DNA from: a virus
Taxonomy: Duplodnaviria; Caudoviricetes
Direction: 5' to 3' (one strand)
Length of the DNA: 27,489 nt
IMG/VR virus record: IMGVR_UViG_3300048834_000123
Span: 1 to 27,489 of that record
Shown: positions 8,221 through 26,316 of the stretch, piece by piece
Numbering within the stretch: position 1 is the stretch's first letter
Layout: each line of letters opens with the position of its first letter
Program-made: the position numbers and the translations under genes
Notes under the pieces: model-generated
Seen by the model: the letters and a program-made list of their open reading frames with translations, nothing else
Databases searched by the model: none
Told to the model about the DNA's origin: nothing

Positions 8221-10343
8221 TTGTCAGTGCAAGGGCAATTACCCGGGGCGGCGCCTATCTTGTGAGGCGCGCGCGGACACTTGCAGCCAGGCTGGCCAAG
8301 AAGTCCGGCAGCGGCTCGGCGCATGAGGTGATCGACACCTACCTGATCCGCGCCATCAAGGCCGGTAAGATAGCCACTGGAACTGTGATTGACCCGCCGA
8401 CCGGCCTGGTTATGACTGGGCCGCTTGGGGAGCATGAAATACCCGTTACCCATTCGTACAAGATGCGCGAGTGGTACGACACGCGCGAAGCGCCAGATAC
8501 CGAGGAAGTGAGTCGTGCCGACCTTGTTGCGGGGAGCTACCTTGTGAGCCGGGCCTTTTATGACACGCCGTCAGCGCCCTTCACCACCGGCCCTGGTGCC
8601 ATGTTTCCCGGTGGGGCAATGCCGTGGGCGGGCGCAGGGATCGAGAGTCGCCATGCGATCCGGTATGCAATGGCAGTTATCGACAGCAGGGGAGGGACGG
8701 CAACATTCATTGAAGCCATCCCCTTCGGCATCCCGTTTAGCCAGCCTTATGGCGTGCAGGCGCTGCTCTATACCGGCCAGTCTGCGCCGCTTTTTGTCCA
8801 GATCACCCAGCGGTATCTTGCGGCAGAAATCGCGGCTTCCGGGTGGCATTTCGGGCCGCACAAGGGGAAGCCAGTTGATGTGCGTGCCGGGTGGCCTGTT
8901 GATCGGATTGCCCAGTTCAGCGGCGCGCGGCGTGACTTCGTGATGGTCGCGTCCACATTTCAGCACGAAACCTTGACCGGACTGCCGGCCCTGCTTACCT
9001 CGCCGGCGCCTGGTATTTGTTTGCTCGCGCACAGCCAGGCGAAGTTGGTCGAGTCCATCAATGAGTCGATGGAAAACGATGGCACGCTGGACGGCGCCCG
9101 CTTTGAAGATGGCCTGCTCTGGCATACCCATTACGAGCTGCGCGAGCTTTTCCCTGTGCTTGAGACAGGGCCGTACCTGTGCGCCCCCCGCTACAACAAC
9201 GATTACTCGCTGAACGGGGCAGGCAACCCCGCGAATGGGAGCGAGGCATTCAAGATATGGAAGAATGGCTTTTACACAGATGGCGTGCCACCGGTGAATA
9301 TAGGCAAGCTGCCGTGCTTCCTGACTAGGCTGTGTGTAGATGCTACTGACGAAGAAATACTGGTACTGGCCGGCGTCACCTGGACTACCTGCGCCGACTG
9401 GAATGCCATTGACCCGGTGGACGTAGATGCCCCGCTTGAGCAGTCGCAGCTGTTTTGCTGTAACGGCCTGATCAGGCTGCGCTTTGACCATGAGGGCGCG
9501 CTTCTGAGTAGCAGTCTTTCAAGCGTAGACAGCACTGCAGGGCCTGATCAGCTGGAATTTGACGGCCTGCCTGAAGACGGCCGGAGTAGTGATGCAAGCC
9601 TGTTTGCGCAGCCAGTCGCGCAGTTGATTGTTCGTGGTCAGCCGCTGGAGATAATCAGCGAGTGGGTGGAGTCGCGGCGTAATGACCGAGCCTTTTCGGT
9701 AACGCCGTGGCTGGGGAGCCAGGGGTCAGTAGATTTTGCCCTGAGCGGAACGCGCGTGAACTTTGAGGGGGAGACTTATTTCTTCAGCGTCGAGGAAAGC
9801 GGCATCTTCACCTGGTCCAGACTGGAAGCGCACGCTGGAATTGGCCACCTCATTCATCGGGAGTACCCGGAGTCAGAAGCGCCTAGCGCTGTACAGCTGA
9901 GCCCAACACAGATCGGGTTTGTCGGCTACAAGCTGGTGCCCTACGGGCGGATGGTCTTTTGTGTGGTTGACCTGCTGACGGGGGCGCTGGACATTCGTGG
10001 CGAGATAGGCCGCGCTGGCTTCGTATGGTCGTACCTGCCGCCTCACCCGCGCGGTGACAGGGCGGTGACTGGCAACGAGAAGCCGCAGGGCCCGCCAACA
10101 CTTTCTGTTGCCCAGCAGCTTATCCAAAAGGATGGCGAGCCACCCATTGAAGGGGTGCTGCTGTGTTCGTTCAGCCCTCAATTTTCGTATTCGCTGATCA
10201 GCAAAGACAGTGGCATGACATGGGATCGCCATGTCATAGGCGCGTCGTCACCGCGCGGCGTATTTTTTGTGCCCAACGCCTTGCACGCTAATTATGAAAC
10301 CGGCACTGCTGTAGCGGCGCCACCTGTAGACGAGGACTTGTAA
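8217..10343 (+). CDS. Hypothetical virion protein (possible receptor-binding or tail component)
   Basis: 708 aa with a GTGA overlap. An Asp-box-like motif (SKDSGMTW) lies near the C-terminus. Confidence 0.6.
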   Translation: MIVSARAITRGGAYLVRRARTLAARLAKKSGSGSAHEVIDTYLIRAIKAGKIATGTVIDPPTGLVMTGPLGEHEIPVTHSYKMREWYDTREAPDTEEVSRADLVAGSYLVSRAFYDTPSAPFTTGPGAMFPGGAMPWAGAGIESRHAIRYAMAVIDSRGGTATFIEAIPFGIPFSQPYGVQALLYTGQSAPLFVQITQRYLAAEIAASGWHFGPHKGKPVDVRAGWPVDRIAQFSGARRDFVMVASTFQHETLTGLPALLTSPAPGICLLAHSQAKLVESINESMENDGTLDGARFEDGLLWHTHYELRELFPVLETGPYLCAPRYNNDYSLNGAGNPANGSEAFKIWKNGFYTDGVPPVNIGKLPCFLTRLCVDATDEEILVLAGVTWTTCADWNAIDPVDVDAPLEQSQLFCCNGLIRLRFDHEGALLSSSLSSVDSTAGPDQLEFDGLPEDGRSSDASLFAQPVAQLIVRGQPLEIISEWVESRRNDRAFSVTPWLGSQGSVDFALSGTRVNFEGETYFFSVEESGIFTWSRLEAHAGIGHLIHREYPESEAPSAVQLSPTQIGFVGYKLVPYGRMVFCVVDLLTGALDIRGEIGRAGFVWSYLPPHPRGDRAVTGNEKPQGPPTLSVAQQLIQKDGEPPIEGVLLCSFSPQFSYSLISKDSGMTWDRHVIGASSPRGVFFVPNALHANYETGTAVAAPPVDEDL

Positions 10344-12447: not shown

Positions 12448-13965
12448 ATGCCTTACCTGACAACCGACGGCGATCTTAACCAGGCTAAGCGCAAGCGTGC
12501 CGGTGAAGCGCTGGCCATTGATGCCGTGCCGAAGCAGACAAGCTTCGACGTGACCAATACGCCGGCCGCTCAGCCGCAGCCTGCAGTCCAGGGCGACCCT
12601 GCCCGCGCCGCTAGCATGCAGGCCCAGTTCAATCAGCCGGTGACGGCAGCTGTTCCAGTAGCCGGGCGGCCTGCCCCGGCCCCTGACTCAGCCGGCTTAA
12701 ACCGGATGTTCGGCGGGGCGCTTTCGATTGCGCCCGCGGCAATTTGGGAAGGCGCCAAGAACCTCGGGACAGAGGTTGCAAATGTTGGCCGGAGCATCAT
12801 TGATGCAGAGCAGGTTCCACGCCCTGGCTACCCCAGAACATCTCAACTGATCCAGGAAACAGCCGATGGGGCGAATGCGTTTGCAGACGCAAATAGAAGC
12901 CTATCCGAGACAATGAAGGCTGTCGCGCGCGACGCTACTGGATCAATGCCAGTCGCAAAGCCTACCAGCCCAATGGTTCAGCGGGATGCAGGCGACCAGC
13001 CCGCAAAACCTGCAACTGCCCCCGCGTCATCGTCACAGCCTGGAGCGGCACCGAGCCAAGCCATGCAGTCGCCAGCACAGCCTGCGCCCGCCAAGAAAGC
13101 AGACTCGCCGTACTTCGCCACCGACAGCGGCATCGCAGCGCGCCGCAATGAAAGCGGAGTCATGGAGTTCAGCAACGACAAGGCAGTGCGGGCCGGTGCT
13201 CAATCTATGCCGAAGGGTGGCATTGGCAGTATCGGCGACGGTATTGGAGGCCTAAGTTTTGGCCAAGATGGCGACGCCCAGCGTGCATACGACAGCCGCG
13301 AGCGCGCGCTTGAAGAGCGGAAAAAAATGGTTCAGATCCAGCGGAAAGGCGCCATTGGCGAGGGCGGGGGTCGAGTTTCAGTTGTGCGCGACAGCTCAAG
13401 AGCGCCTTCCATTGCCGAGCTGATGAATGCGCGCATGCAAAGCCGCCAGCTGCAGGATGAAACAACCCGCGCCCGGGCTCAGCAGATCATCATGGATGGC
13501 GCTGACCGGCTCATGACAGGGCAGCTGAACCGGCAGAAGACGCAGCAGGAGATTGATGCCAGCCAGGTCGGCCTGGAAGGGCAGCAGCGACTGGCGCAAC
13601 TGGGCGCCATGATGGCTGACCCGAACCTGGGGGCAGATCAGAGGCAGGCTGCGCGTGACGCTTACACTTCGCTCAGCATAAGCCCTACCGATAGATTTAA
13701 GGCCGAGCAGGATGGCAATGCTCAGCGGCAGAAGCTGATCGGGGAGCTGTACAAGTCCTATAACGAGCAAAATTCACTAGTAAGGCCTGAAGAGCGTGTG
13801 CCGTTTGATCAGTGGGTGCAGCCCGTATTGCAGCAGGTTGGCGGGGGTATTGGTGCTGAATCAGCGCCAGCGAAAAACTCAGCGCCTGCCGTCGGCACCC
13901 GGCAGGGCGGGTATGAGTTTTTAGGAGGAAACCCTTCAGACAAGAAGAACTGGCGCAAGGTTTAG
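12448..13965 (+). CDS. Putative DNA ejection / internal virion protein
   Basis: 505 aa with a GGAG RBS. It has low-complexity Ala/Pro/Gln regions, a coiled coil and a C-terminal mini-domain (VGTRQGGYEFLGGNPSDKKNW). It precedes the giant polyvalent gene. Confidence 0.65.
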   Translation: MPYLTTDGDLNQAKRKRAGEALAIDAVPKQTSFDVTNTPAAQPQPAVQGDPARAASMQAQFNQPVTAAVPVAGRPAPAPDSAGLNRMFGGALSIAPAAIWEGAKNLGTEVANVGRSIIDAEQVPRPGYPRTSQLIQETADGANAFADANRSLSETMKAVARDATGSMPVAKPTSPMVQRDAGDQPAKPATAPASSSQPGAAPSQAMQSPAQPAPAKKADSPYFATDSGIAARRNESGVMEFSNDKAVRAGAQSMPKGGIGSIGDGIGGLSFGQDGDAQRAYDSRERALEERKKMVQIQRKGAIGEGGGRVSVVRDSSRAPSIAELMNARMQSRQLQDETTRARAQQIIMDGADRLMTGQLNRQKTQQEIDASQVGLEGQQRLAQLGAMMADPNLGADQRQAARDAYTSLSISPTDRFKAEQDGNAQRQKLIGELYKSYNEQNSLVRPEERVPFDQWVQPVLQQVGGGIGAESAPAKNSAPAVGTRQGGYEFLGGNPSDKKNWRKV

Positions 13966-13968
13966 GGT

Positions 13969-14379
13969 TTATCTGTAGTCGCACCAAGGGCCGGGAGTGG
14001 CCTGCTCGCAGGCTGCCCTTGCAGCACTCTTAGTTGGCTCAAGATCATCGAAAAGACCCGGCTTCGGTGGCTGGCCGTAAAGTCTGGCGCAGGACTGCCT
14101 TATCCATCCAATGGCAAGGCCATCCTGCACCGCATTGGCCTTGGCCTGGAAGCAATCAGTAGGGCTGTCGTATTTGGAGAAGATGAAGCCACGACCGGCA
14201 CCCCATTCAACGCCGGTAAGGCGCTCTGGGTAGCGCTCTCCGCAGACGTTTGCGGCGGCTATGGTCGCTTGGCGATTCTGCACTCCCGGCAGCTTATCCA
14301 GCAGGCACTCGGCAAAGTTACCAGCCATGGCCAGGGAAGGGCATGCGAGCAGGGCGAGAGTGGCAATCAGCTTTTTCAT
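13969..14379 (-). CDS. Exported Cys-rich moron protein (possible superinfection exclusion; resembles the VF_A0006-type four-cysteine family)
   Basis: 136 aa starting MKKLIATLALLACPSLAMA (signal peptide). The mature part has 6 Cys. The gene lies antisense within the ejection module. Confidence 0.7.
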   Translation of the reverse strand: MKKLIATLALLACPSLAMAGNFAECLLDKLPGVQNRQATIAAANVCGERYPERLTGVEWGAGRGFIFSKYDSPTDCFQAKANAVQDGLAIGWIRQSCARLYGQPPKPGLFDDLEPTKSAARAACEQATPGPWCDYR

Positions 14380-14460
14380 GGGCTTCGGCCTGGAGGTGAG
14401 TGATGGTAGATAGTAAAGCAGCGGGTGCGCCGGAAGATATCCGCCATCAAATGGCGGGCT

Positions 14461-14487
14461 AATCCCGCCAGTTGGTGGGATTTTTTT
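14461..14487 (+). terminator. Rho-independent terminator
   Basis: AATCCCGCCA-GT-TGGTGGGA followed by T7. The G-U pair favours the + strand. Confidence 0.8.
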
Positions 14488-14490
14488 CGC

Positions 14491-14519
14491 CTTGCCCAAC
14501 TCGGCCAGTGACATAGCGT
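14491..14519 (+). promoter_or_regulatory. Putative late promoter, copy 3
   Basis: CTTG at 14491-14494, N12, AGTGACATA at 14507-14515, and a -10-like TAGCGT at 14514-14519. It starts 3 bp after the terminator. Confidence 0.6.
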
Positions 14520-14561
14520 CCCCACAATGATGCCGCGCGGTGCGGCTGGTTGGAGGTGGCG

Positions 14562-17500
14562 ATGGCTGGGCCTTGGGATGATTATGGGCAAAGCAATGAT
14601 TCGGGTGGTGAGCCATGGAAGGATTATGGCGACAGCTCGCCAGCCCCAAAGACCGACGGCGCATTTAAGCGTGGCTGGAACAAGGCCAAGCAAAACCTCG
14701 CCATTACGAGCGACCTTGCGCTAGGCGACACAACGGGCGCAGCGCAAACCGTTGGCGAGGCCAATCGGTACGCGCAAGCAAACCCCGGCATGCAGGAAGG
14801 CGCCGAGCTGATGCAGGCCTGGGAGGCTGGCGATGGCATCAGTGGCGGTATCGCAGAAGTGGGCCGCGAGTTTGGCCGCGACTGGGATGATGCGCCGAAT
14901 ATCAAGGAAGGCGTCAAGGCAACCGGGCGAAACATCCAGGCCATGGGTGAAGGCATCGCCGAGCAGACTGCCAACATGATTGCGCCCTTGACTGGCATGG
15001 TCACTGGCGGCATCGCGGGGGCAAAGACTGGCGGGACCATCGGGGCTATCGGCGGGCCAAAGGGCGCCGCAGTCGGTGGCGTAGTAGGAGGGCTGGTTGG
15101 CGCATGGGGCGGTGCTTCTATTGGTAACGCGGCCATCGAGGGCGGCGGTATCACTCAAGAGGCAATCCACGAAGCGGGCATTGACCCGAACGACCTTGAA
15201 TCCGTCAAGGCATACCTTGACGAGAACAGCAGCACTCTGCTGAAGCAGGCCAGTATCAAGGGCGGCATCATTGGTGCCGTCGATACAGCCACCGCAGGCA
15301 TTGCCGGGCGCTTGCTCAATGGCCCAGCCAGGGCTGCATCTTCACGCATTCTGGCGTCGATGGGCGTAGACGCTGGCGACAAGGCTGCAGTGAAAGCCGC
15401 ACAGGAAAGCCCTGCTTTCGCGCAGATGCTGGCGCAAGACACCGCCTACCAGGCTTCGCGGCAGGGCGCAGAAAAGATCGCCCGCAACGTAGCGGCCGCC
15501 GCGATTGACCCGGCCGGTGAGTTTGCCGGTGAATACATTGGCTCCGGCATTGCGCTGGATGACTGGGACGCCAAGAACGCAGCGCTGGAAGCATTCTCGT
15601 CCATCGGCCAGTCTGGCGTTATGTTTGCCGGCCAGAAGGCATACCAGGCGGCGACCGGGCTGGGTCGCACACAATCCCCCCTGATCCAGCCGCAACCATC
15701 CGCCGAAAACCCTGCCCCGGCACCGGTCCCCGCACCAGATCCCAATGCTGGCGCTATCTCGCGCACCGCCGCCATGCTTCCAGGGCCAAGCATTGCCGGC
15801 ATGTTGCCAGCGCCAGATCCAGTATTCTTTGCTGACAGCCAAGGCAATGTCAGCGACCAAGGGCCTGAGCGTAATGTTGATCGCGAATACCGTCCGACCG
15901 GACGCGAGAAGGCCCCGCGTGACTTTGGTCCGGGCATGGATCAGCAAACTGAGCGTGGCGGCTCGGTGCTGGAAGGCGAGCTGATCCAAAAAATTCAGCA
16001 GGCAAAGGCACCGCAAACGCTATCGATTACTGATCAGCGGGCTGATGCGCTGATCGTCGATTCTGATGGGAACGCAGTCAAAGGAAAGCTGCCAACGACA
16101 AAGCCCAAGGATTATGTCCAAGGCGGACGCGGCATGGATCAGCAGTTTTCCGGGAAGAAATTCTCCGGCCTGCCTGCCGCAAACAATGCAATCCGCAACT
16201 CGCCAAACCCCGGAAGCCTGACGGCCGTAAAAGTCGGCCCGCACACTTTTGAAATTCAGGCAAAGCCGGTGCTACAGAACCGCGACAGGTCTACCCCTGC
16301 CAGCATTACCCAGATGCGCGGCATTGCCGCCAGGCCTGACTACCAGCGCGTGAGCATTTCCAGAGACTTCGCCAATGGAGCGCCAGTTGTAGAGCCTGGC
16401 GCCTCTGTGCCGGCCAGCCACAAAGGGAGAGCAGAGGTTGTCAGCACGGCAAGTGGCAGGAAGATCAGCACGCAATATGCCGTGATTGAAGCGGCCGACC
16501 TGCTTCCAAGTCACGACATAAACGGCAGCCAAAATGCTGGCTATGAGAGCGGTGTAAAAGGTAAGAGTCGCGCAATCGCCGGCAACGGCCGCGTGACCGG
16601 GATCAGTCACGCCTATACCCAAGGCACCGCTGCTGAGTACCGCCGCGCACTGGAGGCTGACGCAGCTGGCCACGGAATCAGCGTGAATGCAATTAAAGGC
16701 ATGAAGCAGCCCGTGCTGGTTCGGATCATGCCGCAGGATCAGATCACACAAGACATTGGCGATGAATCGAACACCGCGACTGTTTCCGCCTTGTCTGGTG
16801 CAGAGCAAGCATCGAATGACGCCAAGCGCATTGATACCGCAAGCATGCAGTTTGACGCCAACGGCGAAATCACCGAAGCGACTGTGCGCCAGTTCATCCA
16901 GTCGATGCCTGAAGCTGAGCGCGGCGCGCTGCTTGATGGCGGTCGCCCAAGCCGACAGGCCTATGACAGGGCGGCATCGGCCGTCTTTGCTACCGCCTAC
17001 GAAAGCGACGAACTGATCCGCCTGCAGGCTCAAGCAACAGACCCCGAAGCGCGCACCGTTTTATCTGGCCTCTTGGCCGCTGCGGCAAAAATGTCACGCC
17101 TGAAAGGGCATGGCCAGTGGGACATTCGCGGCCTGGTGGTAGAGGCCGCACAAGCAGCTGTAAATGCAACGCGGAACGGCCAGACACTGGCCAGCTACAC
17201 GCAGCAGCTCGACATTGAACGCAACCCTGAAGCCAATTACTTCATCGACCTGTTCGCCACCAACAGCCGCTCAGCGAAGCGCATTGGGGACGAGCTGTCC
17301 GCCGTGGCGGAATTGTTCTACGCTGAGGCCTCAAAGGCTGACACCGATATGTTCGGCGCCGTACCGCGTCGATCGCGCCAAGATCTGCTGAAAGGAGCCA
17401 CTGATGCCAACGCCAACCGTCAATCCGCAAGTGCGCAAACTACTCGGGACGAAGGAGGGGCAGGATCTGCTGCGTCAAGCAGGGACGCGCGAGACGTTGA

Positions 17501-20500
17501 GCGAGCAGAGCGAGCAGGTACTGCAGCAGCTCCACAGCCTGATGCCTTCCAGCTCGACAGCTATACCGAAGAAGAGCTAGCTACTCAGGCCGCCGCTAAG
17601 GTCGAGGCAGACGCCAAGGCTGCCGCCGACGCCAAGGCTATCACCGACAAGGCGCAAGCTGACCGCGACCGCAACGATTTCACCCTGTCCGGCTCGGATC
17701 GCCCTGTCGACGTGGCCGCCTCGCGCGGGCAGAACGATTTGTTCGGCCCAAAGACCAGGGGCGAGCGCAAAGATGACCAGTCAGGCGCCGCGGCTCCCAA
17801 GTCAAATGAGTCCGCCGCCCAGCGCTTTATCATAGCGCCTGACGGCTCTACCGATTTCGGCGAAATCACCAGTGACATGGCCAAGGCCGCAGGCCGGCAG
17901 GCGGGGAAGATTCGCCTGCAGCAGGGCAATGAGTCGTGGGGCTTGCAGCATATCGAGCAGCGGCATGGCGCTGAGATACGCGACGCCGGGTTTGCTGATG
18001 TTCCGGCTTTTGTCGCTGATATTGCGCAGCATATCGACCAGGTGTGGAAGCCAGCCGCGACTCGGCAGCTGGTTGCACTGCACAAGGTCGGCAACAACCG
18101 CATGATGTTTGTCGAGTTGCAGCCTGGCAAGGATGAGGCGGGTGACTTCTACACCGTAAATACGGCGTTCACATCACGAAAGGCAGAGAAGAAGGGGTGG
18201 AAGCTGCTTTGGGAAGCCCGGGCCCAGGCTTCTGGCGAATCCGGCAATCGCCCCTCGTTTGCTGTATCTCCCCCAATTGCCGGGGGGGAGGTCACGAACC
18301 CATCGAGCCAAAGTAGCGAGCCGAGTATAGCACCCCCCGTTGATGACAAGCCTGCCGCTAAGCCGAAAGCCAAGCCAGCAGCCAAGCCAGACGCCAAGGT
18401 CGAGGACGTTGGCGACCAGCTGAAATTCAACAAGAAGGGCATGTTCCGTAGCGGCGGCTTGAAGTGGAGCGACATTGCCAGCGAGAACGATGCGCTGAAG
18501 GTGAAGCTGGCCGGCAAGGAAAAGATTTGGGCGCGCCCAAATTGGGAGCAAATCATCGAGGCGCAGCCGGCAGACCGGCGCGACGGTTTCCGCATGGCTG
18601 CGTACCTGACCAAGCAGGTGTATGACGCCCTGCCGAAGCAGGCACCGGTTAAAACTGATGAAGGCATTCAGCAGTATATCGATGCGGTCACCGAGCTTAG
18701 GACTGCTGCCGAAGCATTCCTGAGCGACAGCGATGCACTTGCCAGTGTGCTGAATGGCCTGTCACAGAAGGCGGCCAGCCGCATGTCTGGCAGCTTTAGC
18801 ATTCTCGATATGCAGGCCAGCAACAAGATCAGCACGGCACCCCTGTTTGCGGCGCTGTTCCCCGAGCAGGCTGCCGGCAAGCGCTTTGAGCGCGGCACGC
18901 CGGCCAATACCAAAGGCCAGATGATCGGCAGCAAGGCCATCAAGGCGATGCAGTGGGGTACGGATGACGCCGTAAAAGCCATGAAGGCGATCAAGGCCGG
19001 ATGGCCAGCCAAGCAAGAGGCCTGGGAGAAGCAGGGCTATGCCGTGCACCTGCTTGATACAGCGCTGACGGGCCGCTACTTCGGCATGGATGACGGCAAG
19101 ATTGCCGCACACCTGCTGCTGGGCGGTCGCTCCACGGACGAGCTGGGTATTTTCGACACACGGCAAAAGGCAGAAGCCGCCGTTGAGGCCAAGTCGAAAG
19201 AGTTGGTTGGCCAGTTCATGGTGCTGGATAAGCGCAAGCGGATGCTGGGCGCATTCGTGACCGAAGTCGAGGCCACCGACTTTGCCAGGGCGCAGGTGGC
19301 GCGCAAGGCAGAGCCCGAGCAGCAGGCCGCCGAGCAAACCAGCGATAACTGGGATGCCCGCACTGGCGAGCAGCGCCGGCCAGAAAATAAGGACGTTTCC
19401 CCGGAAGAGCTGATGGAGGCCTTCGGCTTCCGTGGTGTGAACTTCGGTAACTGGGTGAAGCAGGGCGAGCGCCGCCGGCACCTGAATGCAGCATACGATG
19501 CCTTTGCCGACCTGGCCGACCTGCTGAACATTCCGCCCAAGGCCATAAGCCTGAACGGTATGTTGGGCGTCGCCTTCGGGGCGCAGGGTGGCGGAAAGTT
19601 TGCTGCGCATTTTGTGCCTGGCGTGAACGAAATCAACATCACCAAGACGCGCGGAGCTGGCTCGCTGGCGCATGAGTGGGCGCACGCGCTCGATCACTAC
19701 TTCGGTACCCAGGCTGGCCTGGCCCGCAGCACCAACCCGTTTGCCTCAACTCTGCAGGGCATGAGCAAGTATTCACGCGGCAAGCTGGAGAACGTGCAAC
19801 TGCGTCCGGAAGTCGAGCAGGCGTTCAACAACATCGTGGATGTGATGCGCTCGCGCGTTGAAACGCCTGCCGAGGTAGTGAAGCGCCGCCAGGATGCGCT
19901 GCAGAAGGCCAAGGAGGGTGCTCAGGTTGTAGCCGACCGGCTGCGCCCACAACTGGAAGGCAATGCCGAGGCCCTTAAAGCGCTGGATGCCGTGATGGAT
20001 GGCGAGGCAGGCGAGTATGTGAACCTTCCGATTCCGAATGGCAAGCGCAAGCCGATTGGTGCGATCCCCGAGAACATCAAGACGGTGTATGACTCCCTAA
20101 GCTACAGCTCGCAGGAAGCCTACGACAAGTCCTATCAGCTGCATCGCGTGGCCCTGGCCAAGGAGCAGCTGGGCATGGACATGATGGCGCGCTCGGTGCA
20201 TACGCAGTTCTACCGCAACAGCCTGGTGCTGGACGGGAAGAAGACGCCGTACTGGTCGACCCAGTGGGAAATGTTCGCCCGCGGCTTTGAAAGCTGGGTG
20301 ATGGATGCGCTGGCGCTGCGTGGCACGGCCAACAGCTACCTGGTTGGCGAGGGCAAGGCTGACGAGGCGCAGGCAGATGACTCGCCGTACCCGCGCGGCA
20401 GTGAGCGTGCACTGCTGAATGATGCCTTCGGCAAGCTGGCGGCGGAGATTAAGTACCGCCAGGAAGAAGACGGCAACGTGCCGCTATTCTCCCGCGGGCT

Positions 20501-22604
20501 TGCTGGTGGTGCTGCCTTCAGCTTCGGTCGGGGTGATGTACCCGGAGCGGCAGGTACCGTCATTGAGCATGATGCAATAAAACTTATCGCTGAACGTATC
20601 GGTGTCCAGATCGGGATCGGTGCCCCTGTCATCACTTACCGCAACGAGGCTGAGCTTTTTTCGGCAGTACCGGCGATAGCCAAGCAGGCCGAGAAGGATG
20701 GCGCCAAGAATCAAGTAAATGCCGTCTACTACAAGGGTGAAGTCCATGTCGTGACCAGTGCCTTTTCGCGGGCTGCGGATGTTGAGATGGCCATTCTGGA
20801 CGCACTGGCGCATGAGGGGCAAGGACACTATGGTATTCGCGCCATGCACGGCAATGACGCCAAGGCAGTGGATGCGGCGCTGCGTGAGGTGTTTGCGGCC
20901 ATCGGCGGTGTGGCCGGGGTGAAGCGCCTGGCCGCCAAGAATGGCCTTGATCTGAGCCTGTACCTGAAAACCGCCGAGGGCATGAGTGAGCGCCAGCGGG
21001 CAGGCTTTCTGGCAGACGAGCTGCTGGCGCACCTGCAGGGCCAGGCAGCTACTGCCGGCCTGAGCCAGCGGGCCATGGCTGCCATCAAGGCGTACCTGGG
21101 CGCGGTGCGCGAATGGTTGCGCGGGCATGGCTTCCCCAATCTGGCCAAGGGCACTGATGCCGATATCGCTCTGCTGCTCAAGCGCATGCGCGAGGCAGCA
21201 CAGCGCAAGCCTACCGGGCGCGGGCTGGCTGCGCGGTTCAGCCGAGCAATGGCCGCCATCGGCAACAACGGCGACTTCGACAAGACAAAACCGAACATAA
21301 ACTACCGCATCAATTCAGGCTCTGCTGCTGGTATTCCACCATTCAGCGCCAAGGCTTTGGCCAAGAAGCTGAACGCAGTCACCAGCAACAAGATCGTCGC
21401 CGTTGCCACGGAGAGCGAGCTGCCTGCGCACATCTACGAGCAGATCAAGCGCGACAAAATGCTGGGCCGGGTTGCCGGGCTTCACGATAGCGAGACAGGC
21501 CTGTCCTACCTCATTGCTGCGAACGTCCGCGACACCAAGCACGCCATCGAAGTCATGCTGCATGAGGCCGTGGGGCATGGCGGCGTCAAGGCGGTGCTGG
21601 GCGACAAGCTCAACATGGTCATGCGCAGCATCTACCGCGACATGCCAGCAGCAGCCCGCGCAGAGCTGGAGCGCCGCTACAGGGATCAGCTCGCCAACAA
21701 GACCAAGGCAGAGGCCGAGGTCATCGTTGCCGAAGAGTACGTTGCGCACATGGCTGAGACAGATCCAAGCAACAGTCTGCTCGACAGGATTGTGGCTCTG
21801 GTGCGCAAGGTCATCCGCGATATGTTCGGCGAAGCCCAGTCGCTCAAGTGGACGCGCAAGGACATTGTTCAGCTGCTGGCCGAGGCGAAGCGCGACGTTG
21901 CTACTGACGGTCGCGGCCCAAGAGGCGGAGGAAAGAGCTACCGCGAAAGCCGCCAGTTTGACAGCTCGCCAGCACTGGCAGATGTCGGCGAGGTGAGCGA
22001 GGCGGAGTTTGTCGCAAGCCTCAACGAGCAGTCTGCAGCCGCGATTGCGAAGTCAATGTATCGCGCTCGCGGCACTGACTCGCCATTCTTCAAGAAGTGG
22101 TTCGGCAGCAGCCGTATGGTTGACAAGCAGGGCCGGCCGGTTGCCTTCGTTCATCGCAGCTACGGCGAGCGCGACACCTTCCGCGATGCCGATCTTGGCG
22201 GCAACACCGGCACCCCGACGGCGGCGCTCGGGCACTACCTGGCCCGCAAGGACGTAGGTAACGTGGAGCGTTACGGCCCAGTGACCGAGCAGTTCTTCAT
22301 CCGCATGGAGAAGCCGAAGGTCATCACCCAGGTGCAGTTTGAAGCGATGGGCGACTGGTCAGTCGAGAAGGTCAAGCAGTACCGGGCAGACGCCATGAAG
22401 GCAGGGCATGACGGCCTGTACATTCAGGGCCTGGCCTGGCCGGTGGTGTTTGAGGGCAGGAACATCAAGGCAGTGCGCAACCAAGGCACGTTCGATGCGA
22501 CAGATCGTGCCCGGTACGTCGTGAGCGATGCAACGCGAGCGGCCTATGAAGCGCGTTCGCGTGCTCGACCGCAGCGACGTACTCGACATGCTCGGGTACG
22601 GTGA
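14562..22604 (+). CDS. Large polyvalent (injected) protein, N-terminal part: Gly-rich membrane segment, ddrB-like ParB, PBECR-like RNase, LPD5/LPD1, two further zincin-like domains, ART-like domain
   Basis: ATG at 14562 follows GGAGGT. Motifs: LQNRDR..AIAGNGR (~16272-16600); GKIRL..GLQHIEQRH (~17900); FGFRGVNFGNW..HEWAH (19671)..EMFAR..YPRG; HEGQGH (20811); HEAVGH (21561); FKKWFGSS..VH (~22090). Confidence 0.8.
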   Translation: MAGPWDDYGQSNDSGGEPWKDYGDSSPAPKTDGAFKRGWNKAKQNLAITSDLALGDTTGAAQTVGEANRYAQANPGMQEGAELMQAWEAGDGISGGIAEVGREFGRDWDDAPNIKEGVKATGRNIQAMGEGIAEQTANMIAPLTGMVTGGIAGAKTGGTIGAIGGPKGAAVGGVVGGLVGAWGGASIGNAAIEGGGITQEAIHEAGIDPNDLESVKAYLDENSSTLLKQASIKGGIIGAVDTATAGIAGRLLNGPARAASSRILASMGVDAGDKAAVKAAQESPAFAQMLAQDTAYQASRQGAEKIARNVAAAAIDPAGEFAGEYIGSGIALDDWDAKNAALEAFSSIGQSGVMFAGQKAYQAATGLGRTQSPLIQPQPSAENPAPAPVPAPDPNAGAISRTAAMLPGPSIAGMLPAPDPVFFADSQGNVSDQGPERNVDREYRPTGREKAPRDFGPGMDQQTERGGSVLEGELIQKIQQAKAPQTLSITDQRADALIVDSDGNAVKGKLPTTKPKDYVQGGRGMDQQFSGKKFSGLPAANNAIRNSPNPGSLTAVKVGPHTFEIQAKPVLQNRDRSTPASITQMRGIAARPDYQRVSISRDFANGAPVVEPGASVPASHKGRAEVVSTASGRKISTQYAVIEAADLLPSHDINGSQNAGYESGVKGKSRAIAGNGRVTGISHAYTQGTAAEYRRALEADAAGHGISVNAIKGMKQPVLVRIMPQDQITQDIGDESNTATVSALSGAEQASNDAKRIDTASMQFDANGEITEATVRQFIQSMPEAERGALLDGGRPSRQAYDRAASAVFATAYESDELIRLQAQATDPEARTVLSGLLAAAAKMSRLKGHGQWDIRGLVVEAAQAAVNATRNGQTLASYTQQLDIERNPEANYFIDLFATNSRSAKRIGDELSAVAELFYAEASKADTDMFGAVPRRSRQDLLKGATDANANRQSASAQTTRDEGGAGSAASSRDARDVERAERAGTAAAPQPDAFQLDSYTEEELATQAAAKVEADAKAAADAKAITDKAQADRDRNDFTLSGSDRPVDVAASRGQNDLFGPKTRGERKDDQSGAAAPKSNESAAQRFIIAPDGSTDFGEITSDMAKAAGRQAGKIRLQQGNESWGLQHIEQRHGAEIRDAGFADVPAFVADIAQHIDQVWKPAATRQLVALHKVGNNRMMFVELQPGKDEAGDFYTVNTAFTSRKAEKKGWKLLWEARAQASGESGNRPSFAVSPPIAGGEVTNPSSQSSEPSIAPPVDDKPAAKPKAKPAAKPDAKVEDVGDQLKFNKKGMFRSGGLKWSDIASENDALKVKLAGKEKIWARPNWEQIIEAQPADRRDGFRMAAYLTKQVYDALPKQAPVKTDEGIQQYIDAVTELRTAAEAFLSDSDALASVLNGLSQKAASRMSGSFSILDMQASNKISTAPLFAALFPEQAAGKRFERGTPANTKGQMIGSKAIKAMQWGTDDAVKAMKAIKAGWPAKQEAWEKQGYAVHLLDTALTGRYFGMDDGKIAAHLLLGGRSTDELGIFDTRQKAEAAVEAKSKELVGQFMVLDKRKRMLGAFVTEVEATDFARAQVARKAEPEQQAAEQTSDNWDARTGEQRRPENKDVSPEELMEAFGFRGVNFGNWVKQGERRRHLNAAYDAFADLADLLNIPPKAISLNGMLGVAFGAQGGGKFAAHFVPGVNEINITKTRGAGSLAHEWAHALDHYFGTQAGLARSTNPFASTLQGMSKYSRGKLENVQLRPEVEQAFNNIVDVMRSRVETPAEVVKRRQDALQKAKEGAQVVADRLRPQLEGNAEALKALDAVMDGEAGEYVNLPIPNGKRKPIGAIPENIKTVYDSLSYSSQEAYDKSYQLHRVALAKEQLGMDMMARSVHTQFYRNSLVLDGKKTPYWSTQWEMFARGFESWVMDALALRGTANSYLVGEGKADEAQADDSPYPRGSERALLNDAFGKLAAEIKYRQEEDGNVPLFSRGLAGGAAFSFGRGDVPGAAGTVIEHDAIKLIAERIGVQIGIGAPVITYRNEAELFSAVPAIAKQAEKDGAKNQVNAVYYKGEVHVVTSAFSRAADVEMAILDALAHEGQGHYGIRAMHGNDAKAVDAALREVFAAIGGVAGVKRLAAKNGLDLSLYLKTAEGMSERQRAGFLADELLAHLQGQAATAGLSQRAMAAIKAYLGAVREWLRGHGFPNLAKGTDADIALLLKRMREAAQRKPTGRGLAARFSRAMAAIGNNGDFDKTKPNINYRINSGSAAGIPPFSAKALAKKLNAVTSNKIVAVATESELPAHIYEQIKRDKMLGRVAGLHDSETGLSYLIAANVRDTKHAIEVMLHEAVGHGGVKAVLGDKLNMVMRSIYRDMPAAARAELERRYRDQLANKTKAEAEVIVAEEYVAHMAETDPSNSLLDRIVALVRKVIRDMFGEAQSLKWTRKDIVQLLAEAKRDVATDGRGPRGGGKSYRESRQFDSSPALADVGEVSEAEFVASLNEQSAAAIAKSMYRARGTDSPFFKKWFGSSRMVDKQGRPVAFVHRSYGERDTFRDADLGGNTGTPTAALGHYLARKDVGNVERYGPVTEQFFIRMEKPKVITQVQFEAMGDWSVEKVKQYRADAMKAGHDGLYIQGLAWPVVFEGRNIKAVRNQGTFDATDRARYVVSDATRAAYEARSRARPQRRTRHARVR
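17404..17580 (+). CDS. Candidate overprinted 58-aa protein in the +1 frame of the polyvalent gene
   Basis: AAAGGAG at 17391-17397 lies 6 nt before the ATG. Product: MPTPTVNPQVRKLLGTKEGQDLLRQAGTRETLSEQSEQVLQQLHSLMPSSSTAIPKKS*. Confidence 0.5.
   Translation: MPTPTVNPQVRKLLGTKEGQDLLRQAGTRETLSEQSEQVLQQLHSLMPSSSTAIPKKS
18203..18317 (-). ncRNA. Candidate multibranched antisense RNA after the first PBECR-like domain
   Basis: A closing stem (18203-18212/18308-18317) encloses three hairpins. An extended -10 element, TGCTATACT, lies on the - strand at 18332-18324. Confidence 0.45.
21255..21280 (+). repeat. 26-bp direct repeat, copy 1 (AIGNNGDFD)
   Basis: GCCATCGGCAACAACGGCGACTTCGA is identical to 23527-23552. 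Confidence 0.9.
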
Positions 22605-25600
22605 CTACGAAGTCGTCCTGGCAGAAGGTCATGGCGTTGATGATGGGCGCTTCAACCATCCACAGTTCACTGCCGCAGATTGGAAGAAGGTTCCTGACTG
22701 GCTGGAAAATCCAGTCGCCGTGTTCAAGTACGATGGCAAATTGACGGTAATCGCCCCTGAAACTAAAAACGGGAAGCCGATACTCATTGCGGTTGAGCCG
22801 GCAGCGGGCGCGTCTGGCGGAAAATTTGGGCAGAAACTCCACGTCCTAATCACGGCCTATGACAAGGATAAGGGCCGCTTGCCGATGGAGCGCATGGTTG
22901 AACAGGGCGATTTGCTGTTCGTTGACCATAAAAAAACCCCTGATTTCAACCTTAGCACGAAGCACAAATTGCCAAGAAGCTGGGTAGAAACCAAGGGCTA
23001 CAAAACAAAGGTATACACAGGCGCTGATTTATTCAAGTACCGCAAGGCGGAAGGCTCAAACGGCACCCGCTACAGCGTCAACAGCCAAACCGACACCCCC
23101 GCCTTCAAGCGGTGGTTCGGTGACAGCAAGGTAGTCGATGCTGACGGCAAGCCGCTGGTGGTTTATCACGGGACGAATGCTGACATCGAGAGCTTTGATG
23201 CGGCCTTTCAGGGCGCCAGCGGCCAAGGCTCTGGGGAGCCCGGTTTCTTCTTCGATTCCAATTCGGATAACGCATCACGGTACGTTCGCGGCAACCGGGA
23301 CGGCGGCAATCTTATTCCGGTTTACTTGTCCTTGAAGAATCCGCTTATCGTCGATCGAGCGAGTACCAAGTATGGCTACGACGGTGGGTACAGTCGCGTA
23401 GCCTTTGCCAACTTCATTGACGACGCGCTTGAGGCTGGCAACGACGGCGTGATCTTTCGCGACGTGCTTGATCGCGGCACACGAAGCACGCAGTACGTCG
23501 CCTTCCGCCCCGAGCAGATCAAGTCTGCCATCGGCAACAACGGCGACTTCGATCCGAGTAACCCTGATATTCGCTACAGCCTGAATGACGACGCCGCCAC
23601 CGCCGACGCACTGCGCAAACTGGGCCTGGGCGGAAAGGACGCCGATGGCATCATCCAGCAGATCCGCAGCATGACGCTCGGCGGCCTGAAGTCGAAGCTG
23701 TCCGAGTGGGCGACTCGCTCTGAGGAAGGTATCTTCGATGGCCTGGCGGGGATCAAGCGCGCCGAAGAAGCTGTAGGCGTTACCGATGCGGACAACCAAG
23801 GTTACGTTTCTGCACGCATGGCGACCGGCATTGCGGACGTTATGCATGGTGTCCTGCATTATGCGGCACCTGAATGGCGTGATGGCGTTATCGCAGGCAA
23901 GGCCGACACCCGTGGCGTGCTGGAGATACTAAGTGACCTGGGCCAGGACAATCTTACCCCGTGGCTTGCTTGGCTGGGTGGCAAGCGCGCACAGATGCTC
24001 AAGGCACAGGGGCGCGAGAACAACCTGACCGATGCCGACATTGCCGAACTGCTCGCCATGGGCAAGGGCAAGGAAGCCCTGTTCGAGAAGGTTTACCGGG
24101 ACTACGCCAAGACCAACGAGGCGGTGCTGGATCTGGCCGAGCAGGCCGGGCTTATTGACCCGCAAGCCCGGGCGAAGTGGGCGACCGAGTATTACGTCCC
24201 GTTCTACCGCCAGACCGAGGATGATGGGCTATTCACCGGGCCGCGCTCGAAGAAAGGCCTGTCCCACCAGACGGCGGCAATCAAAGCGCTGAAGGGCGGC
24301 GCGCTGCCAACCAATGACCTGCTGAGCAACATGCTGGCCGGCTGGACCAAGCGCATCGATGCCGCGATGAAGAACAAGGCGTTGCTTGAGGTCGTAGGCA
24401 ACCTGCGGGACAGCGAGTACCTGACCGACGAAAGCCCGCGCTATCAGCAGGTACTGATTTCTCGCAGCCAGATTGCCCAGCAGATCCGCAAGGACCGCAA
24501 GGCATTGGCCATGGCCGCCGATATGCTGGGCCTGCCAGAGGGTAGCAAGTTCCTCAAGGTGGTAAACCAGCTGATGAAGCCGGAGAACGAAGGCTTTGAG
24601 AAGCTGTGGACTAAGGTTGCGCCGACCGACCCGGACATTATTCGTGTGCAGCGTGACGGCAAGAGCGAGTATTACCGCGTCAACGACGACAGCCTGCTGC
24701 GCGGCCTGAAGTTCATCGAGGGTAGTGTGTTCAATGACCCGATCACCCGCATCGGCCGGACGTTCAAGCGTTTGCTGACTACAGGTGTTACGGCATCGCC
24801 TGACTTCATCCTGCGCAACTTCATTCGTGACGCGGCGCACGCCTGGATGATCAACAAGGATGGCTTTGTCCTGGGCAAGGACTCGATCAAGGGCATGCGT
24901 GACGCCCTGCGCGAAGATCAGGACTACCGCGACCTGATGTTTGCCGGAGGCAGCTTCCAGGGTGGCTATGTTCACGGCACTGACCCGGACGCCTCGGCGC
25001 AGATCATTCGCCGGGCCCTGGAGAAGAAGGGCTTTACCAAGCAGCAGCGCGAGGCCTACCTGGGCAGCCTGGTTAATACGCCAGCCAAGGCGGCCGCCAT
25101 GCTAGGCAAGGGCTGGCAGTCCTACCGCACCCTGGGCGACAAGGTGGAAAACTCCAACCGCCTGAGCACCTACAAGGCAGCTCTGGCCGCTGGCAAGTCG
25201 AAGCGCCAGGCAGCGTATGAGGCCAAAGACCTGATGGACTATGCACTTCGGGGCAACTTTGCCGCGGCGCAGTGGTTCACCGACGTGGTGCCGTTCCTCA
25301 ACGCGCGCCTGCAGGGCCTGTATAAGCTCGGCCGCGCAATGAAGGGTGACAACACGCTACTGGCCAAGGAAGTCGCAATGAAAGGCGCCTATATCGCGCT
25401 GTTTTCCCTGCTGCTGGCCGGGATCAATGACGACGACGAGCGCTATCAGGAGCTGATGGACTGGGACAAGGATATGCACTGGCACATTTTCTTGGGCGAC
25501 CAGCACTTCCGCATTCCCAAGCCGTTCGAGCTGGGCATCATCTTCGGTACCGTGCCGGAGCGCCTGTTGCACGCACTGACCGGCACGCAGGATGGCGGCG

Positions 25601-26316
25601 ACCTGGCCAAAGCGGTAGCCAACGGCGTGTTCCAGACCCTAGCCTTCAACCCGGTACCGCAGTTCTATCAGCCGATCCGTGAGCTGCAGGCCAACCGCAA
25701 CTTCTTCCGCGACATGCCGATCGAGGATATGAGCGACGAAGGCAAGCTGCCGGAGGCTCGCTTTAACGGGAACACAAGCGTCCTGGGCAAAGCAGTTGGC
25801 CAGCTGACCGGGCCAACTCTCGGGATTTCCCCCAAGCAGCTTGACCACCTGGTCCAGGGATATACCGGCACGCTGGGCGGCTACGTCCTGAGTATGTCGA
25901 ATCTGGTAGCCGGCGCGTTCGATGATGCCGAGCGGCCGTCAGTCAGGGCTGGTGACATACCAGTGGTCAAGGTTGTGTACCAGGGCGATGACGTTCGCAC
26001 GACCAAGTATCAATCGCAGTTCTACGACATGATGCGCGAGGCAGATCAACTGCATCGCACTGTGAAAGCCTATCGGGAAGAGGGAAGGGTGGATGCTGCC
26101 GGACGCCTGCTGGAAAGCAGCCGCGACAAGCTCAAGCACCGCGCAGCGCTGGGCATGGCTCGCCAGCAACTGGGCACAGTGCGCAAGCAGATGGATGCGG
26201 TATACCGAGATACCAGCATGAGCGGGGAGGCTAAGCGCGCCAAGCTGGATCAGCTGCAGGCGCGTTCAAACCAGATTGCGGAGCGGATCGTCCGCAGGGC
26301 GGGTGGAGACTTTTAA
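22546..26316 (+). CDS. Large polyvalent protein, C-terminal part: MuF-C/PBECR-like, ART-PolyVal-like, LPD38-like; probably the frameshifted continuation of 14562..22604
   Basis: In the +1 frame relative to the upstream ORF; ATGs at 22528 and 22546 have no good RBS. Motifs: HVLITAYDKD, FKRWFGDSKVVDADGKPLVVYHGT, and RIPKPFELG..ANRNFF..SPKQLDHLVQGY. Confidence 0.75.
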   Translation: MKRVRVLDRSDVLDMLGYGDYEVVLAEGHGVDDGRFNHPQFTAADWKKVPDWLENPVAVFKYDGKLTVIAPETKNGKPILIAVEPAAGASGGKFGQKLHVLITAYDKDKGRLPMERMVEQGDLLFVDHKKTPDFNLSTKHKLPRSWVETKGYKTKVYTGADLFKYRKAEGSNGTRYSVNSQTDTPAFKRWFGDSKVVDADGKPLVVYHGTNADIESFDAAFQGASGQGSGEPGFFFDSNSDNASRYVRGNRDGGNLIPVYLSLKNPLIVDRASTKYGYDGGYSRVAFANFIDDALEAGNDGVIFRDVLDRGTRSTQYVAFRPEQIKSAIGNNGDFDPSNPDIRYSLNDDAATADALRKLGLGGKDADGIIQQIRSMTLGGLKSKLSEWATRSEEGIFDGLAGIKRAEEAVGVTDADNQGYVSARMATGIADVMHGVLHYAAPEWRDGVIAGKADTRGVLEILSDLGQDNLTPWLAWLGGKRAQMLKAQGRENNLTDADIAELLAMGKGKEALFEKVYRDYAKTNEAVLDLAEQAGLIDPQARAKWATEYYVPFYRQTEDDGLFTGPRSKKGLSHQTAAIKALKGGALPTNDLLSNMLAGWTKRIDAAMKNKALLEVVGNLRDSEYLTDESPRYQQVLISRSQIAQQIRKDRKALAMAADMLGLPEGSKFLKVVNQLMKPENEGFEKLWTKVAPTDPDIIRVQRDGKSEYYRVNDDSLLRGLKFIEGSVFNDPITRIGRTFKRLLTTGVTASPDFILRNFIRDAAHAWMINKDGFVLGKDSIKGMRDALREDQDYRDLMFAGGSFQGGYVHGTDPDASAQIIRRALEKKGFTKQQREAYLGSLVNTPAKAAAMLGKGWQSYRTLGDKVENSNRLSTYKAALAAGKSKRQAAYEAKDLMDYALRGNFAAAQWFTDVVPFLNARLQGLYKLGRAMKGDNTLLAKEVAMKGAYIALFSLLLAGINDDDERYQELMDWDKDMHWHIFLGDQHFRIPKPFELGIIFGTVPERLLHALTGTQDGGDLAKAVANGVFQTLAFNPVPQFYQPIRELQANRNFFRDMPIEDMSDEGKLPEARFNGNTSVLGKAVGQLTGPTLGISPKQLDHLVQGYTGTLGGYVLSMSNLVAGAFDDAERPSVRAGDIPVVKVVYQGDDVRTTKYQSQFYDMMREADQLHRTVKAYREEGRVDAAGRLLESSRDKLKHRAALGMARQQLGTVRKQMDAVYRDTSMSGEAKRAKLDQLQARSNQIAERIVRRAGGDF
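22930..23000 (-). ncRNA. Candidate antisense hairpin RNA ending in U7 after the second PBECR-like domain
   Basis: On the - strand, CCCTTGGTTTCTACC pairs with GGTTGAAATCAGGGG and is followed by T7. A promoter-like TTGAAT-N17-TACCTT lies at 23036-23008. Confidence 0.55.
23527..23552 (+). repeat. 26-bp direct repeat, copy 2
   Basis: Identical to 21255-21280; this copy ends an intact ART-like domain. Confidence 0.9.

Follow-up and report, generated by a model that had tools for sequence, protein, structure and literature searches.

Genetic organization of the locus

The window, i.e., the whole stretch of DNA that was analyzed (27,489 nucleotides), is a 27.5-kb piece of the late region of a temperate podophage, in which family scans identified genes for an N4-type major capsid protein, an SU10-type adaptor, a GP4-type fibre protein, and a Bro-N antirepressor. 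A short gene, referred to here as the moron, is located between the gene for a 505-amino acid protein and that for a giant polyvalent protein (Table 1). It lies antisense to the late operon, and no sigma-70-like promoter was found for it in the region 13700-14800.

Table 1. Location of the genes and sequence features discussed in the text.
Feature	Coordinates	Strand	Characteristics
505-aa protein	12448..13965	+	Candidate penultimate ejection (periplasmic channel) protein, from its position before the giant
Class-A C-terminal mini-domain	13885..13962	+	PxxGxxxxGYxFxGG[DN]PxxxxxW; putative tag receptor
Moron gene	13969..14379	-	136 aa, comprising a putative Sec signal peptide, a VF_A0006-like helical core with four cysteines, and a variable tail
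C124-x8-C133 tail holding GPWCDY	13975..14010	-	Copy of own class-A tag; predicted disulfide staple
GLFDDL in moron tail	14041..14058	-	Copy of class-D tag, foreign to the window phage
Conserved moron core, residues 21-101	14077..14319	-	C25, C46, C76, and C97 invariant across 35 sequences
Signal peptide (residues 1-19, up to AMA), predicted to be cleavable	14323..14379	-	From sequence inspection; sole hydrophobic stretch of the moron
Terminator-like hairpin and T run	14461..14490	+	Between moron start and giant start; consensus match only
Two N-terminal PWxDY tags of the giant	14571-14585 and 14613-14627 (region 14562..14630)	+	
Giant polyvalent protein, first frame	14562..22604	+	ddrB-ParB, LPD1, metallopeptidase-like HExxH stretches
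Giant polyvalent protein, second frame	22528..26316	+	MuF_C, ART-PolyVal, LPD38

The 505-amino acid protein, which ends in GGYEFLGGNPSDKKNWRKV and whose gene is separated from the moron stop codon by 3 nt, had no Pfam, NCBIfam, or PHROG match. Its 26-residue mini-domain is predicted to adopt a small beta fold (model pLDDT 83.9), for which the fold search returned a best Z of 2.0 and no PDB sequence match, and Pfam scans of 11 mini-domains gave nothing above cut-off. The giant begins at nucleotide 14562 with MAGPWDDYG...GEPWKDYG, which includes PWDDY and then PWKDY. All of its LPD/effector domains (ddrB-ParB, LPD1, MuF_C, ART-PolyVal, and LPD38) scored above cut-off. It is split into two overlapping frames at 22528-22604, just 5′ of MuF_C, and the split near 22530-22600 is either a frameshift or an assembly error. 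The hairpin at 14461-14490 could lower expression of the giant relative to the upstream late genes. Across all six frames, the window contains exactly three matches to PWxDY, one of them in the moron tail and the other two at the start of the giant; from the amino acid composition of the window, the chance of one such motif per 136-amino acid protein is about 1e-4.

The moron protein

The moron is read from an ATG at 14379 to a stop codon at 13969 on the minus strand, and its tail includes PGLFDDLE followed later by the protein end, ACEQATPGPWCDYR. An earlier sequence-only reading of this DNA had noted that the moron ends in PGPWCDYR, that it also carries GLFDDL, and that PWxDY is found twice at the start of the giant; all three observations hold, with GPWCDY at 13992-13975 and GLFDDL at 14058-14041 within the 136-amino acid ORF. 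That reading placed the upper bound of the moron at 14630, which is corrected here to a start at 14379, chosen because the homologues share the methionine of MKKLI. A 231-amino acid version starting at ATG 14664 was rejected since the homologues begin at the MKKLI start.

Export of the moron is predicted from inspection of the N-terminus and hydropathy rather than from a signal-peptide program: the N-terminal signal has a mean hydropathy of 1.72, the next best 19-residue window reaches 0.34, and the scan found no membrane anchor besides the signal peptide. The model of the protein (mean pLDDT 85.7) shows a confident helical domain with residues 21-100 at pLDDT 83-98. Fold searches gave no match at E≤0.001 against PDB and BFVD, and a best Z of only 3.5 VIA-wide. 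There was no Pfam or PHROG match, and the one NCBIfam match, NF041602, scored 37 bits, under the curated cut-off of 65, so the protein is called VF_A0006-like. PF28034 is precomputed on 24 of 25 moron homologues, the window moron itself being without a family in the Pfam copy scanned; the atlas score was 0.94. The VF_A0006 four-cysteine proteins (NF041602, PF28034) share the signal peptide and the helical four-cysteine core with the moron, in which the variable mimic tail is an addition. No paper under the name VF_A0006 was found in the open-access literature.

The tail copy had also been proposed to be constrained by a disulfide. Cysteines C124 and C133 do flank the motif in the window, but L090 and the LKA5 group (see below) have class-A tails free of cysteines, and a disulfide would therefore be optional. 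Cysteine pairs flanking the motif are found in Pseudomonas class-A tails and, with a different spacing, in some class-C tails.

The moron tail matches the N-terminus of the giant

Searches of viral, genome, and metagenome collections yielded 195 loci with a profile match, duplicates included; 170 of them had a complete core and represented 95 distinct morons, for 61 of which the N-terminus of the giant was recoverable after seven manual start corrections. After the removal of four rows (one with a frameshifted giant, two with an ORF other than a giant, and one with the N-terminus in another frame), the dereplicated set consisted of 49 loci, or 50 with L099 restored. Aligning the last 25 residues of the tail with the first 45 residues of the giant, a comparison that needs no class definitions, gave a mean score of 40.3 for a tail and its own giant and 18.6 for a tail and other giants (n = 49). 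None of 100,000 permutations of these 49 loci reached 40.3, the maximum being 25.1, a figure that is not an exact probability because the loci are kin. The control, the last 25 residues of the core, scored 15.5 with its own giant and 15.1 with others.

The tags could be sorted, after the data were seen, into ten classes: A, PWxx[YF]; B, N[FYP]FxxFD or NPFxDPxYG; C, DLFDEFG or LAxEFG; D, GLFDDL; E, PFxGxLD; F, DWES or DWxQ[FY]E; G, [FT]YE[DE]A[FY]G; H, IDxFL or EIxxxLK; I, DxFGGxxV; and J, WWK. The tag is present at least twice in 47 of 49 giants; in the class-D giants L056, L070, and L220, for instance, GLF[DG]DL occurs twice in each. Each class pairs with its own short C-terminal domain, some of these domains being, by sequence, apparently helical and others hairpin-like. 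The class of the tail was among the tag classes of the giant in 48 of 50 loci, with L046 mismatched and L061 unclassable, so the co-variation of moron tails with giant N-termini suggested as a check by the sequence-only reading is indeed found among the homologues. It extends to the mini-domain, which that reading had named as a possible receptor: by these post-hoc classes, mini-domain and tail agree in 67 of 69 cases, and mini-domain and giant tag in 44 of 47.

Where tail and tag have identical residues, the same codon is used at 166 of 331 positions, with 155 expected from codon usage. Synonymous codon choice is thus no more similar than would be expected from codon usage, which places the likeness at the protein level, and a recent inverted DNA duplication was rejected as the source of the tail on this comparison.

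Tail, tag, and mini-domain switch together

On a tree of the cores there are 31 class changes, with a possible minimum of 10 and a mean of 34.9 after shuffling; this is a quick tree of 79 columns with many open forks, and its apparent number of changes is raised by the dereplication, which took out near-copies of the same class. Several pairs of cores are 91-100% identical and yet belong to different classes, each tail matching its own giant (L244/L263, L017/L020, L036/L038, L001/L019, L003/L011, L041/L269, and L009/L013). Blastn analysis of six such pairs revealed that the moron core and the upstream body are homologous, with a break of about 150-200 bp at the tail and mini-domain in all six. 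In five of the six a break also spans the tag before the body of the giant resumes, the alignment of L267/L270 being continuous through the tag. Tail, tag, and mini-domain thus come in ten or more types that can replace one another and that change together in genes which are otherwise nearly identical. The coordinated change involves two distinct segments, an argument that domain and tag form a functional pair. The reading frames of tail and mini-domain face each other at their stop codons, with a median gap of 0 nt, and form a single cassette of 150-200 bp, so that a phage changing type would acquire the matching putative decoy in the same crossover.

The class-A pair in phages with and without the moron

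IMG/VR was searched with a DNA pattern for the class-A mini-domain, and 120 matches were listed of an estimated 880. Among the matches listed 111 were distinct, 102 of these being C-terminal and 97 having an adjacent downstream gene; that gene starts with PWxx[YFW] in 88 of the 97 and has the motif twice in 79, and six of the nine exceptions show PW with one extra residue ahead of the aromatic, or a similar variant. The background frequency of the tag at the starts of other long ORFs, class-A giants among them, was 9 of 281. In L124, L163, L166, L198, and L218, the class-A mini-domain is also found in an internal position in a protein or close to the N-terminal part of a long one, and the positions of domain and tag may therefore be rearranged in some phages.

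The same class-A mini-domain, together with a doubled KPWEEF tag, is present in Hollowayvirus (F116, H66, LKA5, and phiC725A). Domain and tag are kept in F116, H66, and Epa33 with no moron at the slot, which makes the moron an accessory gene. In LKA5, E220, and Atpa001, on the other hand, a moron ending in KPWEEY is located 5′ of the mini-domain gene and the giant has KPWEEF; this moron differs from that of the window in lying upstream of the mini-domain gene and in its cysteine-free tail. It is a complete gene that is unannotated on that strand in LKA5 (NC_073675.1, around 45458-45805; L005 6001-6348), E220, and Atpa001. The same class-A tag is shared by sequenced P. aeruginosa phages that carry the moron and by others that lack it. 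The positional counterpart of the giant in H66, gp60, is annotated as "verified by mass spectrometry". Lysogens of phiC725A show self-exclusion according to the available part of the report (PMC5217972), for which repressor immunity alone would be a sufficient explanation.

In three RNA runs of one study, which were picked for containing the moron and whose contigs cannot rank genes, coverage of an F116-like prophage includes its moron from 8979-8980 onward and leaves bare most of the 17-kb late region, as well as the repressor-region control. A fourth run, from a different study, covers the whole F116-like region.

Exceptions, foreign tags, and variants

The mismatched locus, L046, has a tail and a mini-domain of class H and a giant of classes A/E. 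The giant N-termini of L046/L285 and of L099 include two class-E and two class-A tags together, a possible transition state between types. Away from the mini-domain, tails still match their own giants in the LKA5 group and in G804, whose moron, about 20 kb from the start of the giant, does so through an eleventh motif, FxFDS. The off-slot morons of G806 and G807 have tags foreign to their own giants, and a foreign tag followed by the cognate one is stacked in the tails of the window (D, then A), L003, and L272. The moron of the window is probably a decoy of two types, a reading of its sequence that follows from GLFDDL being the class-D tag and absent from the N-terminus of its own giant.

Other variants were observed. 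In the L242-L275 subfamily an extra helical domain of about 60 amino acids (YRKIYAAHPDAD-type) is inserted between core and tail, the cognate tag still being terminal. An ORF at 4001-4537 of L095 has a VF_A0006-like N-terminus on an unrelated body and ends in SLFDDL beside a giant with GLFDDL. Truncated morons persist at the slot in L289, L290, L292, L295, L296, L313, and L316, which indicates that the gene is often lost or broken. The interval between moron and giant is a hotspot for accessory genes, including antirepressor-like ones (L009, L013, L015, L018, L020, and others). At 858-1262 of L331 (the L062 gene, on an Accumulibacter contig), chromosomal genes surround a moron homologue whose tail is E-like; no phage structural genes were recognized in 40 kb, and this homologue is possibly a decoy captured by the host.

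Relationship to known systems

In phage P22 the exclusion gene sieA adjoins the ejection genes. The window moron resembles it in being an accessory gene of a temperate podophage, located between the 505-amino acid protein gene and the giant, both putative ejection genes. As far as the available part of its description goes, escape mutations for SieA map to gp20 and gp16, SieA blocks the DNA conduit, and two divergent SieA types have the same target range (Leavitt et al. 2024, PMC10883804). Mimicry is not proposed in that part of the description, while the moron has a swappable copy of the peptide of its target's partner. In addition, SieA is an integral inner-membrane protein and the moron is predicted to be soluble after export, and the two share no family match in Pfam, PHROG, and NCBIfam scans. 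The moron would thus act like SieA but is not a SieA.

The available part of a recent study of P22 describes the C-terminal end of gp20 as a template for the assembly of gp16, which docks there and diffuses in the periplasm, and AlphaFold3 models with the N-terminal region of gp16 in which the extreme C-terminus of gp20 is repositioned (10.64898/2026.09.03.749273). As proposed here for the window, the C-terminus of the penultimate ejection protein is there the site on which the last, larger one assembles; a repeated tag, classes of mini-domains, or a decoy do not form part of that portion of the account. No family match to gp20 or gp16 was detected for the window proteins.

The giant is similar to the large polyvalent phage proteins in having several LPD/effector domains in one protein (Iyer et al. 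2017, PMC5512222). One such protein, phi24B gp47 (LPD5/LPD1/LPD38), was detected in virions and proposed to be ejected, according to the available part of the source (10.64898/2026.04.10.717836), and by analogy we infer that the giant is a virion/ejected protein. The portions of these two accounts that were available do not mention N-terminal tags, partner mini-domains, or mimics (PMC5512222; 10.64898/2026.04.10.717836). Nor was a description of the tags, mini-domains, or mimicry found in searches of the open-access literature, covered mostly as titles and listings.

Proposed function of the moron and alternatives

The existence of the mimicry system is strongly supported, and its function is a prediction. 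By sequence and by analogy, we consider it probable, at roughly 60%, that the moron is a type-specific periplasmic decoy for superinfection exclusion that jams DNA entry. Both phage proteins, the 505-amino acid protein and the giant, would be ejected, and mini-domains on an oligomeric periplasmic channel would capture the giant by its two tags. A lysogen would produce and export the moron, whose tail would compete for the mini-domain, leaving the DNA conduit incomplete and keeping out phages of that type. Through the additional GLFDDL, the block would be widened to class-D phages. A point against the decoy is that a short soluble peptide must outcompete a partner that has two tags, is boosted by avidity, and is ejected on the spot. 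Prediction of a complex between the class-A mini-domain and moron residues 105-136, both supplied as alignments, scored 0.25 where the mark was 0.32, with no folded controls, and speaks neither for nor against the decoy.

The alternative that survives best, although an unlikely one, accepts the pair of tag and mini-domain and has the moron serve the phage's own cycle, neutralizing premature ejection proteins or sibling virions at lysis, or aiding assembly of the conduit. The match of slot tails to their own type in 48 of 50 loci would be expected, and expression of the moron in lysogens is itself a prediction. However, F116, H66, and Epa33 are viable relatives with no such gene at the slot, the moron is antisense to the late operon, and tags foreign to the phage are found alone (G806 and G807) or stacked (the window, L003, and L272). 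These foreign tags break the rule that a tail is always of its own type, yet they fit a decoy directed at rivals better than a helper of self-assembly.

Marginally less likely is that the tail is a sensing bait, binding of the mini-domain triggering a response through the four-cysteine core such as abortive infection, envelope stress, or prophage induction. The 80-residue core with its four invariant cysteines is conserved beyond the needs of a bare peptide carrier, and one subfamily has a further helical domain before the tail. Nevertheless, apart from its signal peptide the moron has nothing to anchor it in a membrane, its neighbours in the loci inspected included no conserved partner gene, and in L095 the tail is carried on an unrelated body.

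Less likely again is that tag and tail bind a host envelope factor, which the moron would mask, the mini-domain co-varying through linkage only. Entry of P22 requires the host protein YajC, according to the available part of that study (10.64898/2026.09.03.749273), and tail and mini-domain are adjacent, with the stop-to-stop gap given above. But domain and tag switch together despite the shared moron core, and often other genes, between them; several classes are found within one host genus; and the phages with class A are very diverse, the tag always following the same mini-domain. Finally, that the likeness is due to chance or is a functionless by-product of local DNA duplication, as the short motifs and neighbouring genes might suggest, is highly improbable and largely refuted by the permutation test, by the codon comparison, and by the recurrence of the match in ten classes and at a distance.

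The decoy reading can be extended to many podophages, a generalization that we hold tentatively and at somewhat less than an even chance. The last two ejection proteins would be coupled by orthogonal, structurally unrelated pairs of mini-domain and peptide, and prophages would carry programmable periplasmic decoys with stackable tails that set entry-exclusion groups independent of repressor immunity and drive the switching of the pairs.

Implications

The moron probably represents an entry-blocking superinfection exclusion that rests on an apparently undescribed coupling of tag and mini-domain. The proposal offers a mechanism, readable from the sequence, for how podophage ejection proteins meet in the periplasm, and one for the specificity of entry-blocking exclusion, which is unexplained for SieA. 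If it is true, which prophage excludes which phage would be predictable from a tail of 6-10 residues, a property that would be relevant to picking therapeutic phages against lysogenic Pseudomonas, and the family would be a source of at least ten compact, mutually orthogonal pairs of peptide and domain.
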